Shown: one piece after another, positions 5,824-32,039 of the stretch
Position numbering within the stretch: the stretch's first letter is position 1
Layout of the letters: every line of letters starts with the position of its first letter
DNA from: Asterionella formosa
Taxonomy: Eukaryota
Reading direction: 5' to 3'
NCBI GenBank assembly: GCA_002256025.1
Contig: NKIB01000410.1
Location: forward strand, 1 to 32,804
Length of the DNA stretch: 32,804 nt
The notes under the pieces: generated by a model
Databases searched by the model: none
What the model was told of the DNA's origin: nothing
What the model saw: the letters and a program-made list of their open reading frames with translations, nothing else
Made by a program: the position numbers and the translations under genes

Positions 5824-7743
5824 CTCCCTCTGGGCGAAAAAAATTGCGTTGATTTGCAGCGAATCAAGTGCCGGAAAGCATCAGCTTATTTTAGGACGGA
5901 TTACGTGGAAAACATACCATTTTTCTTCTCTCTTGAAAAATTCCCGTATTTGAGGAGTTACATATCTGGTACTCCAGTAGTAGACAGGAACATTACTCTG
6001 TTTCTGTAATCAAATTATTAGAATCTAAATAAATTACCGTAAAGCATGGGGTCCTGTATCCCCCCCCCCCTTATTCATGTACCGGTACATCTGGTGCAAC
6101 ACTCCCAAATAATTTATGTCTACTGAAAAATAACAGCATGTTATTGTATTCTATTTGTTAATATATTTATGTCTATTAACTATAATTGTATTATTACTGG
6201 TCACCATCAAGAAATGGCAATCAACAACAAGACGAGCAACGCCAATGACATTTGTGATGATAATATCCTTGGCCTAAGAGTTATTTCAAGAAGTTGCAAG
6301 CTTGCTGTGGTGCGATTATCAAGATGAATGCTACAGGCTGAGACATTGCTGGCCTTGATGTTGTCAGCATGCCGGAAGCGTTTATAGAATCACTTTTGTC
6401 TGCTGCCTGATGATGCAGAAATGTTTCGTGCATGTAATATTTTCTGGTCCAATAATCATATAAGTGATGTTGTTGGCTTTTATAAATATCCATCACGATC
6501 CAAATTGTAGAACCTACACAAATTAATACAGTTGTAGGACTACTAGGTACAAACGTGTACACACTCTAGAAATTACTATTGATGTCATCACGAAACTTGG
6601 GCGCACGAGTGCACCAAAACATGAAATTCTATTGATCATAGAAACCGTTTGAACCGACAACAACAAATCTTTTAATGTTGCTATTAACGTTTTAGACTAT
6701 GGAGAAAACGGTGGTGAAGTTGGTTTGCTCATAATGATTGGAGATCAAAAATTGGCCAATATCTTTTACCCCTCTATAAGTAAAATCAGTTTTGGCTTTG
6801 TACATTGAGGGATACAGGACGCCAGGTTTACAGTAATCGAAACCAGTTGTTGAACATATAGAGATATACAATATAGTCTATGCATGTAAATAAATTAAGA
6901 AATGACATTTGATAGACTCATGGAAAGCAAGGGTCTGCTGTCTGACAACAATTTAGGAAGTTTTTGATGATGTGGTGGTTGGAAGGGAGCTGGATGGACG
7001 AGAGATTCTTGGGTTAGGTGCATGCAAAAATGGGAGGACACGCAAGTTCCAACACTATTCATGTGGAAGTGTGATCACTTTTTTTTATGTATGCAGCTTG
7101 GACTGCCTCAATCAACCCATCCATATCATGGTTGGCCTCCTCCACTGAATCCCATTGGCCATTCTGGGCGGAGTGCCTGAAAAATTGAGAGCATTGATGT
7201 TCATGTTTGGTAAGTTTTCTGTTTGCCCTGTTAACTTTATATTCCTTCCATGCCATCCTCAGCCGATGATTCTACAAATATGCAATAATTGCTTCCAAAA
7301 TGGGCACTCATATTGTCATGTTGTATGTAAATAGTCTTGTTCTTCCCTTCATTGTTGAGCAGCCATTTATCCTGGATAGCTGGTAAAACATTAATAATAG
7401 TCATGTCTGCGTTTTTCTGCTTTGTAACTGACAAATCTGTTGCATTTGCTGTCAGCCGATCTTGAATATCATATACCAGTCAAGGTAAAAGTAACCCACT
7501 ATGCTGACAAGCGAAATTCAAGTAAATTCAATAGCCCTAAACCATGCACATGTATTGCTATTTTTTGTCATAGACTACTCTGCTAAATTTACTGATCTAA
7601 CCAATGTACCCATTACCTGCATCGCCTCACGTAGAAAATGCATATTGCTTCTACTGCAGCATTCTTAAAAGGCTGTGGAACGTGCCGGATTAGTCGCTGA
7701 GCGTGTTGCAACTGCCGGTATACATGAACGGACACGGAGGGAG
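5824..7743 (-). mobile_element. Degenerate DD39D (Stowaway-related) mariner element
   Basis: TA|CTCCCTCTG at 5822-5832 and ACGGAGGGAG|TA at 7734-7745 give Stowaway-type termini with a TA TSD. They enclose a transposase relic. That the two ends belong to one element is inferred. Confidence 0.55.
7070..7440 (-). pseudogene. Mariner DD39D transposase fragment, frameshifted
   Basis: SVTK...VLPAIQDKW...TIYIQHDNMSAH (cf. IQQDNARPH), followed in another frame by QWDSVEEANHDMDGLIEAVQAAY. Confidence 0.75.
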
Positions 7744-10430: not shown

Positions 10431-13038
10431 CTCGAACCTAACTATCATCTTGCTTTCGAGGGTATCTAAGTAATTTTTATATAGGGGCACAGTGGATTTT
10501 TCGGTAGTCCAATTTTAGGTTTGAGGAGGGACCAATCAAACAACGTCAGGAGCAGAATTTTGAAGGGAAATATTAGAAATCGAAATGCACCAGCCACAGC
10601 CATCAAAAATGCACGGAGCAAACGAAAAATGATCACACAAGAATGTGTGTAACAGAAAATGTCGAAAACTTCGACATGATTTTTTTAACCAACCAAAGTA
10701 TAAAATGGAAAATGAAAGGTTAGACGTGATGATGAAGAACAGGGAGAAGAATAAATAGTGAAAAACAAAATGAGTTAGTGGAAAATTCGTGTGAAAAATT
10801 GTCAATGCATGCTCATTAAAGTTGTCTACTTACACATTATTCTTGTGTTGTTGCAAGGAAAGTTCAGAAAGGTTCGAAACGGTCCTCGAGGAGCAACAAC
10901 TGATAAATTAATCAGTTTGCAGGGAATGGGTGATAGATCGACTATGACTTTAGGTGGCACAGGTTGAGGAAAAATAGCTGGATAATAGGCGTTGTTTGGT
11001 GCTGGTGCCTATTTCTGTTGGTAGTATCCGGCAGGAGGAGGATGGCTTGGTGTATATGTTCCACTTGAACGAAAGTCATATCCAGAATCAACGTTATTGA
11101 AATCGTTATCGTCACTCCAAAATTCAAAAGGAAGTGACAAATTATTGTCAGCGATAGCATGTTTGAGTTCAACTGTATGAATGAATGAGCGACTGGCTTT
11201 GCAATGCATAGGTATGGAATGATTTGGGATTGGATGGAAGCAAACTGTTAAAATCTTATTATGGAAACAAAACCGACAATAAATTGTTGACATACTTGTG
11301 CTCATCACCAGACAACAAACTGGTTCAACCAGTGGAAAGCGACTTCTTGGCAGCATCAGGAAAAGGAAGAGCGAGTAGCAGGACGGAGTGCTTTTTTCAT
11401 AGGTTTAAAGCAAAAGAAATTTTTACTACAATTAGTATTATCAACCATGGTGGGAACAAGTCAAACATGACAACAACAATCAAGCAGCACATCCCTGTCC
11501 TCTCTTACTTGTAAAATACGAGTTGATGTAGACTGCTGGTTCTCCTCATGTTCTGTCTACTTGGCTGAGTTTGAGATACTAGGGCATTGGGATTGACGAA
11601 TTTTCGTTGTCATTGTAGATGATAATATAAAAGTAACAAAGTAATATTGTGACAATTTAACAATGAAACACTACAATTGTGGAGCAGCAGGAAAAAGCAA
11701 ACACATGAGCACTAAACCTTGCTGCGGCTGAGATCTGATTTGAGGTAGTGGGAAATGTAGAAAACATGCCAAAGAATTATAGTTGTATTTAAGGGCTGAT
11801 CATCATATCTGACGAAAATACTGAAATATTGGCGCCACCACAAAGAAGCAAGAACAACACGACGATAAGAACCTGACCTATGGTACCTGGTACAGTATGT
11901 ACCACGCTACATATCCTATATCATTATTTAGATGGTATAAGTCCTATATAACTAGTCAACCTTATAGGCTCTTCTATACAGACCATTTACCGGTACTTGT
12001 TTGCTCTCACTGTACATAGAGATTTACACAATTCACAATGTGTATGTATACCACGTCAACCATAAGTGAAAGGTGTACCCTTTTACATTACGCACACGAC
12101 TACCATGGAACCCATACGTACTAGTACATATACATGTACATTAGAGTGATCATGATTAGTACGTGATGCTATACACACGGTTACTAGTATGTAGCTTGCA
12201 GTACATATTGCATTATGTATCGGCAGCTATATGTTACGTGAAAACTATTGGTACAGATGTATCGCTAGAATAGACGTACCAATGCTAGGCTAAAACATGA
12301 CACCTAGCATGGACTCTTGACACCTAGTACATACCCTTCTCATCAAGACCCTTGTGAGTCCCCTTGGACTAGGAGCTAATATAGATACTACACTAGTCAT
12401 TAAGCTCATAATAACCCAGAACCTACTTGTTGAATCCTGACAACCACCATAGGGCAGAACCCCACAAGAAGTCGAATCATCCAACAACCAGCCACATCCA
12501 TTTAATGATGAATAACTACTTGACTGATCAATGAACACACTTTGTACAAGTCTGAACATGCTGGAAGATAGCAGGGATGTATATACTAGTGGAATTGCCA
12601 ATAACACTTTACAGAAAACCATCACTTCGTGCTTTCACGTAGTTCATCCTACTCTCCTCCAAATTTGGCAGTCCATTTTCCTTAGCTAGTAAGTAAACGG
12701 TAGTCCATTGATGGGCCATAGATATCAGTAATCCATTTCCCTTAAATAAATGGCAGTCCATTTCAGCAGGCCAATCTAGGGTTTATTGAAAAGATTGAAG
12801 ATAGTTTGGCAGTCCAAAAACAGAGCATATGAAATTTACAAAATACGTTTTATATGAAGGGCAATTGCAGGATTGAGTAATCCAAAAACTGAACAAATGA
12901 AATATACAATATATGTTTTACATGAAGGGCAATTGGCTACTAGTTTGCATCCAACATACAAACTACTTAAAATAGGTTTTCAATGTTAACTGAAAGGGCA
13001 AATATAGTGGCAAAAAGCATGCCAATAGTTAGGTTGTG
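10431..13038. mobile_element. Non-autonomous TIR DNA transposon (copy A) with AAT TSD and subterminal repeats
   Basis: Left end is CTCGAACCTAACTAT...TGCTTT; the right end reverse-complemented is CACAACCTAACTAT...TGCTTT. AAT flanks both sides (10428-30, 13039-41). Subterminal repeats include GGCAGTCCA and ATGAAGGGCAATTG. It is homologous, inverted, to 24318-26241. Confidence 0.65.
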
Positions 13039-17376: not shown

Positions 17377-17755
17377 CAAACAAAAGAGCAACGGCACTCC
17401 CTCTATTCCGGTATAGTTGCAAGACACTCAGCGACTAACCCGGCTTGATCCACATCCTTGAAAGAAGCCTCTGTAGAAGAAATATAAAATTTCCACATGA
17501 GACGACGCAGGCTAATGGTATACCGGTTAGATTCGTATGTTTAGGCCGACTATCCAAGTGGGGTTAAGGCAGGACACATGCCCTTATGACGGTTGCAACG
17601 AATGCTGAGCTGAGCAAAGGGTTCGTGCGACCTGCAATGAAATCAGCGCCGACTGTAATGGCGGCATCGAGGACGATGTTACCAAAAGGATTCGACTTGC
17701 CTGGCAAGTTAATTTTTCTTCTCTGCTCCGTTGCTAAGCGGTGAGAACAAGGCTG

Positions 17756-17860: not shown

Positions 17861-19863
17861 ACAACAAATGTCCGAAACACTCATCAAAAAACGAAGAATT
17901 TAGGTGCATATATTTCATAATTTATTGCCACAATTCTGCAAGATGGAAGTGTTTCTACCATTTGCGGAGTCTGTACCACTTCCGTTGGTGTGCCGCACTG
18001 GTCCCTTTGTGTCGCCTTTCTTCGAGCACCCATAGTTGCATTACGCTCAGTGACTAACCCGGCTCAATCAAGGAAGCCCTCTGTTAAAGCAATATGCATT
18101 TTCGGCGTGAGACGATGCAAGCAATGGCTGGATGCATCATGAAACTACATTGGGTAGCCATCATAGCTACCGGTACAAAATAATTCTGGCTACCAGTACA
18201 ACATAATTTTAGCTTAAGTAAAATGTTCTATATAAATAATATACAGATGAATAAAGTTTATGTACACATGCATCCACGATCTCGTTGTTGTCGTTGTTGC
18301 ATTCATTCATGATGAACATGAAATCGAAATCCATTGTGCAGCGATGGGTGTGAAATCAATGTTGTGTCTTCATTGCAACTACTATATGATTTTTTAGACA
18401 TTCCTGTACAGTTTCAACTCCAGCTTGCCCACTATCAAGCTCAAGAGTGTGAGACATTGGTCATGATGTAGGCATGGATCTCCATTCCCAACAAGAAATA
18501 GTTCATATATAACAAAACAAATTGTGTCGTCCTGTGCCTCTTCCGGTGTTTAATAGTAGCGCTACTCATGGAGGAAAGAAAGCTATTTGAAGTGGCACGG
18601 AGGGATGTTCTATTGTTGAGTAAAGCAACAGAATAAAAACAACATGATGGATGTGATTATAACATGCCAATCCAGGCGCAAAATATTATATACCATAGGT
18701 TTAGGGTTCATGCTGATACCAGGCCTACAGGGTTTACCCAGTGGCCCAAAAATTGCATCCAGCCATATGGTTATGTCGGTTAGGTCAGTTTAGGCGAGAT
18801 AACGCTAAATAGCTGTATAAATGTGCATCATTTTGCTTTGAAACAATTTTGCTGCAGTGTGTCGTGTAGTCTACCGGTAGTCATGATTGTTGAACTATGA
18901 TATTTAGTGAAAGTATGTCTGTTTGCAGTACTGGTACTGGTACCAAGGTACTGTTTCGTTGCCGTGGAGGTGATACCAGTATTCTGAAGGAACTGCTATG
19001 TAGTTCAAGGTACTTACTCGCTCATCTCAAGTGCAATGTTAAAAGTACCTACAGGTTGCGGTCATTTTGCTCAAATTTACAATTTAATATCAGATAAAGA
19101 TAGCTAAATCTTTAGTTTAAGCAAAATTACCGCAGCTTGCCTGTTCTCCGGCTGACACATTCTTCGTAAGTAACGTAAATGACTACTTGAATGTTATGTA
19201 CAGGTATGATTCGTACTCCCTCAACTCAAATGCAATGTAAAGTACCTGATGGTGCTCTACATATCGTAACAGATTCGTGAATCAAGTAAATGACCAGTTG
19301 AATGAATGACCATGAATCACTAGGGAGAAACAACTGTGACTTTGCCTGGTAGTGCTCTACTGTAGGAAGATAGCTTGAATGGATGATTTCTGAAGGTGAA
19401 AATGATACTTAGCATAGAGTCATTTTTGCGTATGTACCAGGTACGCACAATCGACAAATCAAAATTGCCACTTGATACGATACATCGTAAATGAAATATG
19501 TCCTTTCATTGACATAATATGTGGTTTGATTTAAGGGTACCAGGTAACCTGGTACCAGTTACCGGTATGGAGTAAAACTGTATCAATGGAATCCCATATT
19601 CGGGCCAAACGACTAAATACCGGAACATCGATGTCGCGAAGTCGGATTAGTGATCCCGCGGTATTCAAATTTAACGACAGAGGAACTCTAGGCACTCCTA
19701 TTTCGCATAAGTCACATAACGATACAGGCGATTGATAGCTAACTATAGCATCCATCATGAAAACATGTCAACAACCCTGATCAATCAATGAAAATTCTCA
19801 TTCGCGAAAATTATACAGTATTCTCGAATTTCTACTCATTTCCGAACAACCTATCGATCAGCC

Positions 19864-26959: not shown

Positions 26960-28400
26960 AAAACATAGGGGGAGAGGAAAAGAATCATGCAGGTAACATG
27001 CTGGGTAGACCACATAAGGACCTTCCCACAAATGCTCATACCACTGGAAATCAATGTCCTTGACTCTGCCCATTGATCACCCACCATTTACACTGATAGC
27101 TAGAACCTAATGAAGTTCCTTATACTGTGCATACTGATGTTGTTTGATTCAAAACCTTATTCAAACAGCTGTCTTTTCTAGGCTTCTGCTTTAAAATTGA
27201 TGGAAATCTCTTAAATTAATTGGGACCAGGTAATAAGCAACTATTTAATTTAGCAACATTACTAAATCTTCCCAAGTATACACCAAGATAAAATAAAGGA
27301 TACACTAGTACCCACTCAATGGGATTTGCATAAATATGTCTGGGATATTTTGATTGAGTCCCTTTCTGATCTGTCTTGGTGTTTGCAAAGTACTTATGCA
27401 AAGCATGGTCAGTCCACTCCATATGTGACAAGCAGATTTGGCTTGTATTATTGACCCTGCAAATCAATTCCAAGTAAAGGCCAGGAATAGGTGACCCCAA
27501 ATGCAATCACCAGTTCCTAACTCAATGAACCAAGTAGGGGAATGGCTTAATTGGCTAGCACATCTCATGAGGTAGCAGGTTCGATTCCTGCATTCTCCAG
27601 TTGTATTTCTTTTATGTAGCTAGTAGTCCCTAGGGATCTGGGGTTGAGGCTGATAAAGAGACAGGCACTGTTGTACCATAGGGATGAATAAACCTGGTAC
27701 TAATTGTTTCCATTTAAGTAGGCACGAATGCGACTATTGGATAGTTTTAACATACTATAAAAATCACTAAGTTTTAACTCAATGAACCAAGTACAAAGGA
27801 GGTGATATATTTGATTGTTCATGGTTTCCTTACCCTCATAAATCTCTCCTAACCCATAGTGATTCTCTACTGCAATAATCCGATAAAAACCATGCAAAAG
27901 GTTGCTAAGTTCCCGCTCAAAATCAACTGTGAAGCCTGTGCCATTATGTAGCACGAATAAGTTGAATAGATCTGATCGCTTATTCCCATAGCAGCTCTTG
28001 GACAGCCAATCTTGTGTCCAAGAATAGCAAAGGCTCTGGAGATATACCATATACCCTGCTGGAGTGATTGCAGAGAGCATCATGATGGCTTCCTCTGCAG
28101 CATGCTGAATCAATTCAACAAATCCGTTTCTAACACGATTTTTTCTTCCCTTGTACTACCTACGTCTGCTGCCTCCATCTCGGGAAGAATCACCTTGTTC
28201 TGGGCATATGCTGTAAGCCATCCTGGTTTGTGTTCAACACACCAGCAGCAAAAAGAGACCAAACTGTCAGAAATGTATTCCCAGCATGTACCCTTGTCCA
28301 TCATCATCTGCTCATTGAATTCCTGTAAAGGAATGCCATGAGAATGAAGAGGGACATGTGGCATCCTCATGATGGTGAGCACAAAGGGAAGAGGATGCAA
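26960..28400 (-). pseudogene. Crypton-like tyrosine recombinase, decayed and interrupted by a SINE
   Basis: Across stops and frameshifts it reads GKETM...LCTWFIEL|GTGDCIWGHLFLAFTWN/LICRVNNT...HMEW...AL...FANTKTDQKG...PRHIYANP. It continues ISMHSIRN (HxxR), GG*SMGRVKD and FVGRSLCGLP. This is the motif order of stramenopile Crypton recombinases. Ends are approximate. Confidence 0.75.
27537..27774 (+). mobile_element. tRNA(Ala)-derived SINE, 238 bp, 19-bp TSD
   Basis: TSD TAACTCAATGAACCAAGTA at 27518-27536 and 27775-27793. The head (27537-27599) has A box TGGCTTAATTGG and B box GGTTCGATTCC. It also has a T stem GCAGG/CCTGC and an acceptor stem GGGGAAT/ATTCTCC-A. Confidence 0.85.
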
Positions 28401-28816
28401 CCAAGAATGTGCAAATGAGCAATAAAAATGTGATAATGAATGTGCACGCAAAAATTGTAGTAGTTAATACAATGTTTATCATGTACTATACTTGTACTCA
28501 TAGAAATGGTATATGTCATACGTTAGAGTGATGTTGATTGATGCAATTCAAATTAATAGTTGAAGCAACGTATGTATCGCACTTGTTCCTGGGCGCGCTC
28601 TGATAATAAAAAATAATTATATATCATGTGTATAACACAAATCGTTGTACCCATAACCCCAAAATTTGGTCAACACAAACACAAATTTTTACAGTTATAA
28701 ATAACAGTGCATTATATAAAAAGATGTTTAGGCATGAATGACTATATAGAATTTCCCGGAATATTTCAAGACTTGCTTGCTCATACTCAAAATGGCTTGC
28801 TCTTGCCAAAATAGGT

Positions 28817-29878
28817 ATGCATATTGCATATCATTACACATCAATCAACTTCCTCAATACATCGATCGTCATCGCTTTTAGATTTCGAACATGTCTTCAT
28901 CTTCTTCTGGTCAAAGGAGAGCAGCCAGGGAGGGAGGGCTTCCCTTCCTCTCCAAGGCTGCTTGAATGTCGTCATCACCAACAAGAGCAACAACAGACTC
29001 AACCAGAAGAAGAGGATGACGACGACGACGACGACGACGACCACGAGGACGACGACGAGAATGAAGATGACACTGGTGCTGATGAGTTTGCCAGCAATGA
29101 TGAGGACAGTAGGATGGGTGTCCCACCAGGTGTTTCTCAGATTGGTGTTTCTGGGGTTACTCAGTCCCCATCAAGTAACAACAACTATATTTCACGTGCT
29201 CCTACTAGTTCAGTTGCAAGAACGGCAACTGCCAGGCGACCACCAATGTTTCCAAGGGCTTGCTGAAGCATGCAGAGTCGGGGTCAACAGTTAAGGATCA
29301 ATGAGATTCTTTCATTGCTTGACACCATTTCTACTCACCTGCCAATTGGGTCCCATAAATGGGAAATTGTTGCTTCACAGCACAACGAGATTTTCCCAGA
29401 CAAAGAACGGACAGGACCATTACTTCGCCGAAAGTTTACACAGCTGCACAAAGTTAAGAAAGCAAGAACTGGGGACCCGCCAGCATGCCCTGCTGAGGTG
29501 AGATATGCCAAACAAATTCTTCGAAGAATCGAGCAACGAGCAGATGCAAGTGCTGAGATTGAATCCACTGATCTTGGAATAGAGAGTAAGCACAATGAGC
29601 CCAATATTGATGAGCCAAATGTTGATGATGCTTTTATAGCATTTTCTGGGGAGAGTGAAGACAATGGAGGAGCAACATCTGCCGCTTATGCTAATTTCTC
29701 TGGTTCAAGATTTCCTCTACCTATGGTGTCCCCTCGATTTAGAGATAAGGCAGTGTCGAGCAATACTGGGTCAGTTGAGAAGTGCTTTCTCTTCTTTCGA
29801 TGCAGTTGCTTCACATGGCTACTCGAAATGATTCTAATAACCTGCAGCAGCAGCAACAACAACAGCAACAGAACATGA
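28817..29878 (+). pseudogene. Harbinger accessory Myb/SANT-like DNA-binding protein with an in-frame stop at 29264
   Basis: LLDTISTHLPIGSHKWEIVASQH...RTGPLLRRKFTQLH...TGDP. The two track ORFs share a frame separated by one TGA. The true start is uncertain. Confidence 0.7.
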
Positions 29879-30500: not shown

Positions 30501-31656
30501 TTACATGGCATATCTATTAGCATTCCTATGCAAATAGGGCATATACACTAAAGCAATTTGGTTCTGACCAACTTTGCTAGCACGAAAGTTGTAGAGCAAT
30601 ACAATCATTTGGAGAATTAATTTTCTCTCTCTCTTTTTTCTTCATAACGAAATTTGTCTTTGATTCTTGGAAATGATCCCTGAAGGCATCGCATTCCCCA
30701 TTGCGACAGCTGTCAGATTGAGGTGGCTTGGCGATTCATACCAAATCTTTGTCGAGGATTACCATTTGCATCAACATTATTTTGATGCGATTTCAACATT
30801 GCATTTGATTTCTTAGATGCAAATGCTGAATCCACAGCTACTTTTTTACCTGTATCGCTGTAAACTGTTTCAATCTGATCATACATCGATGACCAAATTG
30901 CCATGGTAGAGTCATGTCGAACACCAGGTGCATTGAAATATGAGAAGCGAATTTTTCCATTAGGCAAAAAAGAAACAAGTTTGGCACATAGTGTTCATGA
31001 GTCCATCCATTGTAGAAGTTGTTCTGCTGTGTTTCATTTCCAGCCTGTTGCAGGGGGGTCAGTTTCAGACCATCCATTGCTCCCCAACAATTTGTTATAA
31101 GTGGGTATTTCTGATTGATCATGGTTGCAAACAAAGTGGCTTCGTCTGCAATAGGCAGTCTCACAACAGCATCTTCATGTGTCAGCAGTACTTTTACAAA
31201 CATTTGCCTTGAAAACCTCAACCAAACACTCAATGAACCATGAGTTAATCCGAAAATAATCTGAAGAATCATATAGGAACCACGAGTCCTGGTCCATCCT
31301 AACCCAAGCGCTGGACATCTGATGGAACAGAAGTATCTTTGCCGACCTTTCTTTGTTGTTGAATTTCTAACAATGAAATCCGTTTTTTTTCGACAGGGAG
31401 TAAAGGAATCATAAAAACAAGGTTTGAACAGCTGGTGTAGGAGCTCGAAAGAAGCATGGTCAAACCCACACAAGGTAATCAGAGCATCATCATGCTTGCT
31501 GTTGAACAAAGTCCAGAATGGACTTGATAATGGATGCTGTAGTGCATGGCGACGGATTTTGCCACTTCTTCTTCTGACCTCAAAAACAGTCAAACTTTCC
31601 CTGAACAATGGCGTTACTGGTGGATAGCACATTGCTAACAGTAGCAATGTGATCAT
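30501..31656 (-). pseudogene. Harbinger DDE (DDE_Tnp_4-type) transposase, frameshifted
   Basis: CWGAMDGLKL, FYNGWTHEH, NAPGVRHDS, VDSAF, and ATSI*QLSQWGMRCLQGSFPR, where the expected catalytic E reads Q. C-terminal LLYNFR...GQNQI. Confidence 0.85.
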
Positions 31657-32039
31657 AATGTCATCATCAGGAGATGAGATGAAAGTCTACATGGTCAGTG
31701 ACCAACGATGATGAATATATAGAACTTCTGCATATAATGAACAAGAGGCGGCGTAGCATACAAGAGGATGCATTGCTCGATATGAAAATTTAAGTTAAAT
31801 ATATATCTAATGTCAGAAAAGTAATCTAAAATATCTCTATTATCAGAGCGTATCAGAGCGCAAGGACAATATTATGTAGCAGATCACCAGAATAATTTGT
31901 GTTATAATACACACATGATATAATAATTTTTTATTATCAGAGCGCGCCCACAACTGACAGAAAAGGAACATTTTCGCTCAATCAGGATTCCATTTAAAAA
32001 TCACAGAATCCTGGTACTTTGTCCGGTAGAACTGAACTG

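Follow-up and report, generated by a model that had tools for sequence, protein, structure and literature searches.

A probable tRNA-derived SINE copy within a repeated, tentatively Crypton-like pseudogene of a freshwater diatom

Within the window that we analyzed (the whole stretch of DNA presented above, 32,804 nt), a perfect 19-mer occurs twice and encloses 238 bp that begin like a tRNA, inside a gene copy that is itself highly repeated. The locus therefore raises the question of what the enclosed DNA is, how it moved, and whether its other copies arose by the same route. The data makes it quite likely that the insert is a SINE copy, non-autonomous and derived from a tRNA, in the genome of a freshwater diatom, that it was moved by LINE-type retroposition, and that its host was copied afterwards. 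As in other SINEs, the 238 bp are non-coding, they start with a tRNA-like head that contains promoter boxes, and copies are found at unrelated sites.

The direct repeat consists of two identical 19-mers (TAACTCAATGAACCAAGTA), a left copy at 27518-27536 and a right copy at 27775-27793 (plus strand), with a start-to-start spacing of 257 nt and an insert of 238 bp between them (27537-27774). When the 25 nt upstream were compared with the 3′ region, none of 2000 shuffles produced an equally good repeat; the sequence and this test together confirm the description of the locus, first given in a sequence-only reading, as a 238-bp insert bracketed by a perfect 19-nt repeat. Whether the T at 27775 closes the element's T-run or opens the repeat is ambiguous, and the target-site duplication is therefore 18 or 19 nt long. 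The element is crossed by short ORFs only, all of which are part of the host's reading frame. We also observed that the 13 nt directly left of the left duplication copy (27505-27517, AATCACCAGTTCC) resemble the last 13 nt of the element (27762-27774, AATCACTAAGTTT), agreeing at 8 of the 13 positions and sharing an exact 6-mer at the same offset. The tail of a related locus, L002, differs at the place equivalent to 27762-27774, and the likeness may be due to chance or to later conversion.

Two other kinds of insertion were considered and rejected. The ends of the element carry no terminal inverted repeats and the duplication is 19 nt long, a structure that speaks against a MITE or other DNA transposon. 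An introner was rejected because, on the minus strand, no offset within the 19-mer has the cut preceded by AG and followed by GT; the host copy, moreover, is a pseudogene.

The insertion event itself can be read from empty sites. We placed the contigs of four public runs (X1, X2, X11 and X17, where X2 is DNA and X17 is RNA) on positions 27000-28300; the window's stretch occurs in runs from an 'algae metagenome' and from freshwater metagenomes. In one X2 contig, position 27517 connects to 27775, with 19 letters ambiguous at the joint, while one X1 contig reads up to 27536, continues with 17 letters that resemble 27794-27807, and resumes at 27808. Both contigs lack the insert and have the 19-mer just once. 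In addition, a homologous protein found via the right-hand flank (P0121) aligns to the minus strand on both sides of the element, with residues 122-246 corresponding to 28134-27763, residues 238-259 to 27532-27467 and, beyond a frameshift of one base, residues 260-282 to 27467-27399. P0121 and a second homologue, P0123 (56% identical), read ...MIELG(S/N)DDGIWGHLFL... unbroken at the insertion point. The empty sites in two runs and a homologue that reads straight across thus uphold the earlier claim that the element arrived by insertion.

It had also been claimed that excision restores the interrupted reading frame, and this holds across the junction but not far beyond it. Excision of 27537-27793 in silico leaves a minus-strand frame that reads ...TWFIELGTGDCIWGHLFLAFTWN, matching P0121. 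A stop then follows 23 codons past the junction, as a result of the one-base frameshift at ~27467, and a second host frameshift lies near 28149. Because of these frameshifts, the restoration of the frame is merely local, and the gene copy is otherwise dead.

The interrupted gene (27216-28463, minus strand, delimited by tblastn of P0121 against the window) is a frameshifted copy of a multi-copy, recombinase-like gene, which the element enters in antisense between codons that read ...WFIEL and GTGD.... The host gene is highly repeated: it has 129 homologues at E ≤ 0.001, and 3103 contigs of run X1 were placed on 27000-28300. The homologues include P0121 to P0250, and their long members have 700-1083 residues. 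A consensus of 18 homologues contains the pattern R...K-DQ-G...H-x-x-R...W...Y, and the combination of R, K, H-x-x-R, W and Y is typical of tyrosine recombinases. Two long members match Phage_int_SAM_1, an integrase SAM-like domain, weakly and below threshold. A search of Pfam with the host gene returned no family above threshold, including the integrase and DUF3504 families, and a search of the PDB with the 18-homologue profile returned no recombinase, only weak and unrelated matches. Based on the consensus pattern together with the weak SAM-like-domain matches, we tentatively label the host as a probable Crypton-like tyrosine-recombinase pseudogene. The element is a passenger in a dead transposon gene and has no evident function.

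The surroundings are those of a diatom nuclear genome. The window contains nuclear genes for PsbQ, malate synthase, a dual-specificity phosphatase, a short-chain dehydrogenase, CENP-S and an SRP40-like protein. All the named relatives of the malate synthase are diatoms (66-73% identity; Seminavis 73%, Amphora 72%, Odontella 70% and Nitzschia 69%), which bears out the initial impression of a diatom-like genome, and metagenome proteins reach 82-83% identity. Transposons seem to be abundant in the final 7 kb of the window. Next to the Crypton-like pseudogene, an ORF (29267-29875, plus strand) encodes a DUF6818 domain (E 7.4e-08); a strongly acidic stretch (28999-29136) precedes it, and the ORF could be part of the Crypton-like element or of another mobile element. 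Farther on, a DDE_Tnp_4 fragment of the Harbinger/PIF type of transposase (30716-31686, minus strand) scores 23 bits against a threshold of 24.8. A repeat of ~130 bp occurs three times (7583-7713, 17415-17544 and 18032-18127; 70-77% identity, one pair inverted) and is another small dispersed element.

The first 63 nt of the insert (27537-27599, plus strand) form a tRNA-like head. They match the Rfam tRNA family (RF00005) over model positions 1-71 with a score of 31.9 bits, against a gathering threshold of 29. The head has a 7-bp acceptor stem (GGGGAAT/ATTCTCC) with a G3-U70 pair, a D arm, an intact T arm (GCAGG/CCTGC) and a discriminator A at 27599, while its anticodon arm has collapsed to ~3 bp and a 3-nt loop (3 nt versus 11 in the Rfam tRNA model). 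An exact B box (GGTTCGATTCC) lies at 27578-27588 and an A-box-like motif (TGGCTTAATTGG), which is approximate only, at 27543-27554. The Rfam score and the sequence therefore agree with the sequence-only reading on the tRNA-like head, its Pol III-type B box, the G3-U70 pair, the discriminator A and the collapsed anticodon arm. ARAGORN predicted no tRNA in the whole window, a silence that fits the collapsed anticodon arm, and none in the metagenome loci described below. Folding was no better than that of shuffled sequences, either for the head (z = -1.58) or for the whole element (z = -0.32).

We scanned metagenome contigs with a 22-mer taken from the T arm and acceptor end and found six loci (L001 to L006). 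Full-length copies are present in L003 and L005, with 79.5% and 76.1% identity to the window copy and with flanks unlike the window's. L002 has the same element at the same position of the host sequence; its right-hand 19-mer is identical, and its contig starts at the element's 5′ end. In L006, a truncated copy continues into host sequence that starts at 28020, and in L001, which comes from a marine metagenome, the head is the same but the body differs. L004 was set aside as a chance match, a bare 22-mer inside an apparent coding sequence.

Besides these loci, a match that starts at 27536/27537 behind unlike upstream letters was found in 8 contigs of X1, 3 of X11 and 6 of X17 (agreement 0.45-0.53), further contigs carry variant heads that begin with the same GGGGAATGG, and many contigs in the four runs match the body. 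The element is a dispersed, multi-copy family whose 5′ end is sharp and shared and whose insertion sites differ. With L003 and L005 in unrelated flanks and a common 5′ end in contigs of three runs, the prediction that this is a multi-copy family, and not a one-off, has held. Within the window, neither blastn nor an nhmmer search with the family profile found a second copy. The 22-mer head pattern had 0 matches in genome contigs and 0 in viral contigs. A 19-mer body pattern had 2 matches in genome contigs and 21 in viral contigs, all of which we rejected as chance: the family profile recognized ~30 nt around the pattern in 4 of these 23 loci, one of which sits in a bacterial repeat array, and nothing in the remaining 19.

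Candidate target-site duplications around L003 and L005 were not significant (593 and 118 of 2000 shuffles, respectively). Part of L003 (positions 429-817) resembles 12465-12941 of the window, including the tandem 55-mers at 12813-12935, with 72-83% identity. We rejected 12465-12941 as an orthologous empty site of L003, as the immediate flanks of the insertion have no counterpart there; the shared sequence is probably another dispersed repeat. In L006 (positions 1-348), the SINE is truncated at both ends, its 5′ side joins Asp-rich, coding-like sequence via a shared ATGAGG, and its 3′ side is joined to host sequence ~290 bp further on, so that L006 looks like a rearranged copy.

Comparison of five heads shows which parts of the tRNA-like structure have been kept. 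The B box and the final-column A are invariant, and G3-U70 is retained in all five. In the five-head cloverleaf, 88% of the cells pair, compared to 38-53% when the partners are slid, and there is no covariation (0 pairs changed on both sides). The Rfam tRNA scores of the L002 and L003 heads are 30.0 and 28.3 bits, respectively, on either side of the gathering threshold of 29. The acceptor stem and T arm appear to resemble those of eukaryotic cytosolic tRNA-Ala, and a CC that follows the discriminator in family copies other than the window's could be left over from a CCA end or could reflect chance. The head most likely descends from a tRNA, with tRNA-Ala favored on the basis of G3:U70 and A73 only. 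The proposed origin from tRNA-Ala is thus supported by these two features in all five heads but not by the anticodon, as the reduced anticodon arm leaves no readable NGC or other anticodon.

Downstream of the head, the element is divided into a trailer, a variable module and a conserved body. The trailer (27600-27615, plus strand) contains TTTT at 27610-27613 and looks, from its letters, like a tRNA-gene 3′ trailer with a terminator. Around the same position, L002 has a run of six Ts, L003 and L006 each have runs of five and four, and L005 has three Ts only; runs of 4-6 Ts thus lie 10-15 nt past the head in the window copy, L002, L003 and L006, and not in L005. The variable module (27616-27659, plus strand) appears as an alignment gap against L002, L003 and L005 and includes an 11-nt duplication in the window copy. 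In X1 and X2, contig depth over it drops ~tenfold and several joints pass it by. The conserved body and A/T-rich tail (27660-27774, plus strand) align with L002, L003, L005 and L006. In all, the body comprises ~160 nt that are unrelated to tRNA. The window copy contains a second run of four Ts at 27745-27748 and ends in a terminal T-run at 27772-27774, or through 27775. The tails end in AAGTTTT in the window, AAACTTTT in L002, CAATTTTTTTT in L003 and, in L005, AATATTTTT followed by a few A/T. Neither a poly(A) tail nor a simple-repeat tail is present in the element; the sequence-only reading was right about the poly(A) but had overlooked the terminal T-run and the T-runs after the head.

The family had also been called young, and here the data points the other way. 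Its copies are 76-86% identical pairwise and so differ by 14-24%, and host copies that already carry the insertion differ by 5-10%. Compared to the window, identity in the SINE and in the flank is 90.3% and 94.7% for L002, and 89.7% and 91.9% for L006. Since these diverged host copies have the same insertion, the SINE entered before the copies, or the species, diverged by 5-10%. The insertion is therefore not very young despite its perfect repeat; a perfect match over 19 positions rules out only divergence above ~15%.

The same comparison shows that part of the apparent copy number consists of host-repeat copies that carry the SINE, and not of separate retropositions. The SINE occupies the same host position in L002 and L006, where it and the flank have diverged to a similar extent from the window. 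The predicted proteins P0122 and P0191 follow the host frame through WFIEL into SINE-derived codons, and X11 contigs span both element/host junctions. These observations, together with an X1 depth over the body that is about that of the flanks, would also be expected if a real retroposon family had spread mainly as a passenger of the Crypton-like repeat, after one or a few old retropositions, and were effectively extinct as a SINE. We assign this explanation a low, though not negligible, probability. Against it, independent sites are shown by L003, by L005 and by the contigs whose 5′ flanks are unlike (8, 3 and 6), and the head's depth in X2 is 5-10 times that of the flanks, although summing depth over metagenome contigs gives an unreliable measure.

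The explanation that we prefer, LINE-type retroposition of a SINE followed by copying of its host, can be stated as a series of steps. The head has kept a putative Pol III-type promoter of A and B boxes and has lost most of its anticodon arm, and the RNA would start at the first G of the head. This RNA would then be reverse-transcribed at a staggered chromosomal break, presumably by target-primed reverse transcription, with an autonomous non-LTR element supplying both the endonuclease and the reverse transcriptase. Such a process would leave a long duplication, in this case 19 nt. The SINE copy landed antisense in a copy of the repeated Crypton-like recombinase gene, and this host copy, with its SINE in place, later multiplied or was inherited. 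That reverse transcription took place at a staggered break is suggested by the long duplications, the sharp 5′ end at tRNA +1, the absence of inverted termini and the absence of coding capacity, while the copying of the host after insertion follows from the several diverged host copies that carry the same insertion. The sequence-only reading took the element to imply a partner LINE, which overstates the case; the window contains no LINE or reverse-transcriptase ORF. RTE-like non-LTR elements have been reported in Thalassiosira pseudonana (PMC2806351) and are a candidate for the type of partner.

The T-runs complicate a simple Pol III model. T-runs of this length stop Pol III in many eukaryotes, so that transcription of the window copy would be expected to stop after the head, before the body; the T-run at 27745-27748 presents a similar difficulty. 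Either diatom Pol III reads past short T-runs, or the master copies do not have them, like L005. These internal T-runs, together with the absence of poly(A), the unusually long duplications (19 and ~24 nt) and the RNA contigs that reach upstream of the element, would also suit a tRNA-headed element that was moved by a non-LINE reverse transcriptase (for example, Penelope-like) or transcribed by Pol II read-through. However, a sharp, shared 5′ end at tRNA +1 is what an internal Pol III promoter is expected to produce, variable and long duplications fit target-primed reverse transcription, and there is nothing positive for any other partner. We therefore consider this alternative improbable. As for the RNA itself, six X17 contigs extend upstream of the element's 5′ end by a median of 206 letters, which looks like read-through transcription or library DNA. 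The depth of X17 is higher over the head than over the flanks, but because the DNA run X2 shows the same excess, X17 depth is uninformative on expression.

Because the head, trailer and T-run resemble a tRNA gene with its terminator, the SINE family may go back to a read-through transcript of such a gene. The same resemblance, along with the CC that follows the discriminator outside the window, would fit a one-off retroposed pre-tRNA or tRNA-gene read-through whose body is merely the gene's 3′ flank, but the other copies refute that explanation, to which we leave a very small probability: L002, L003, L005 and L006 all have this body behind the head, the flanks of L003 and L005 are unrelated, and many contigs in four runs match the body.

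The marine locus L001 bears on how widely this type of head is shared. At L001:661-893, a truncated tRNA-like head is attached to an unrelated body of similar length, within a degenerate repeat of ~24 nt. The repeat abuts the 5′ end of the L001 element and recurs ~233 nt downstream (2 of 2000 shuffles), and L001:661-893 may be a second SINE family with a common head. A broader proposal is that a diatom-wide or otherwise widespread SINE superfamily exists, in which a tRNA-Ala-like head with a deleted anticodon arm is combined with different bodies in freshwater (window, L002, L003 and L005) and marine (L001) lineages, with unusually long duplications of 19-24 nt and an oligo(T) end that resembles a Pol III terminator, in place of poly(A). 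We regard this proposal as tentative and somewhat doubtful. If true, it would imply an uncharacterized partner retroelement and the retroposition of primary Pol III transcripts, and diatoms would have their first SINE with a defined structure.

Among known systems, the host can be compared with Crypton elements, which are known from oomycetes and one diatom (PMC3212892). CryptonS elements and the host gene are both tyrosine-recombinase genes repeated in a stramenopile genome, with R, K, H-x-x-R, W and Y present in the host consensus; they differ in that the host has no above-threshold Pfam integrase or DUF3504 match and no recombinase match in the PDB.

The insert shares with the tRNA-derived SINEs, a class of SINEBase (PMC3531059), its short length, lack of coding sequence, multiple copies, A/B-box head, unrelated body, a sharp 5′ end at tRNA +1 and, in the window copy, a target-site duplication. 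Unlike them, it has an oligo(T) end without poly(A) or a simple repeat, and T-runs right after the head.

SINEs were long thought missing from most unicellular eukaryotes, and the authors of the Cyclotella cryptica paper note this earlier belief in their absence (PMC7466962). Within the diatoms, 13 'putative SINE' copies totaling 1,454 bp are listed for Phaeodactylum tricornutum (PMC5859163), and a SINE class is annotated in Cyclotella cryptica (PMC7466962) and in Pleurosigma (PMC12803021). These labels concern the same host group and the same nominal class as our element; in the searchable text of these papers they are pipeline labels that come with no described head, duplication or family structure, and the comparison with our element is by description only. 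The earlier remark that SINEs are poorly documented in diatoms is consistent with these searchable papers, which give pipeline annotations only. A literature search that joined SINEs, diatoms and tRNA derivation found no relevant paper, and a search for SINEs in six freshwater diatom genera had no such paper among the matches listed. Judged from the literature alone, the SINE family is probably undescribed.

The infSINE families of oomycetes are tRNA-related. In Phytophthora infestans, they have a presumed internal Pol III promoter, and infSINEm is present in 32 copies (PMC3429519). As far as their published description allows a comparison, infSINEs, which number in the low tens of copies, and the element are both stramenopile SINEs with a presumed internal Pol III promoter, while infSINEs belong to a different lineage; the two were compared by description only.

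A parallel to the head is found in an unrelated host. The rodent ID elements, together with BC1 RNA, are tRNA-Ala-derived SINEs whose head has G3:U70. Like our element, they have a head that is thought to descend from tRNA-Ala, but they differ in having A-rich tails, in using L1, and in their unrelated hosts and independent origin.

With its defined head, ends, empty site and duplication, the insert would serve as a reference element for annotators of diatom genomes, while the family would offer presence/absence markers for freshwater diatom populations and a handle on which reverse transcriptase is active in diatom genomes. Set beside these known systems, the element is of a well-known kind: it widens the documented host range and leaves the concept unchanged.
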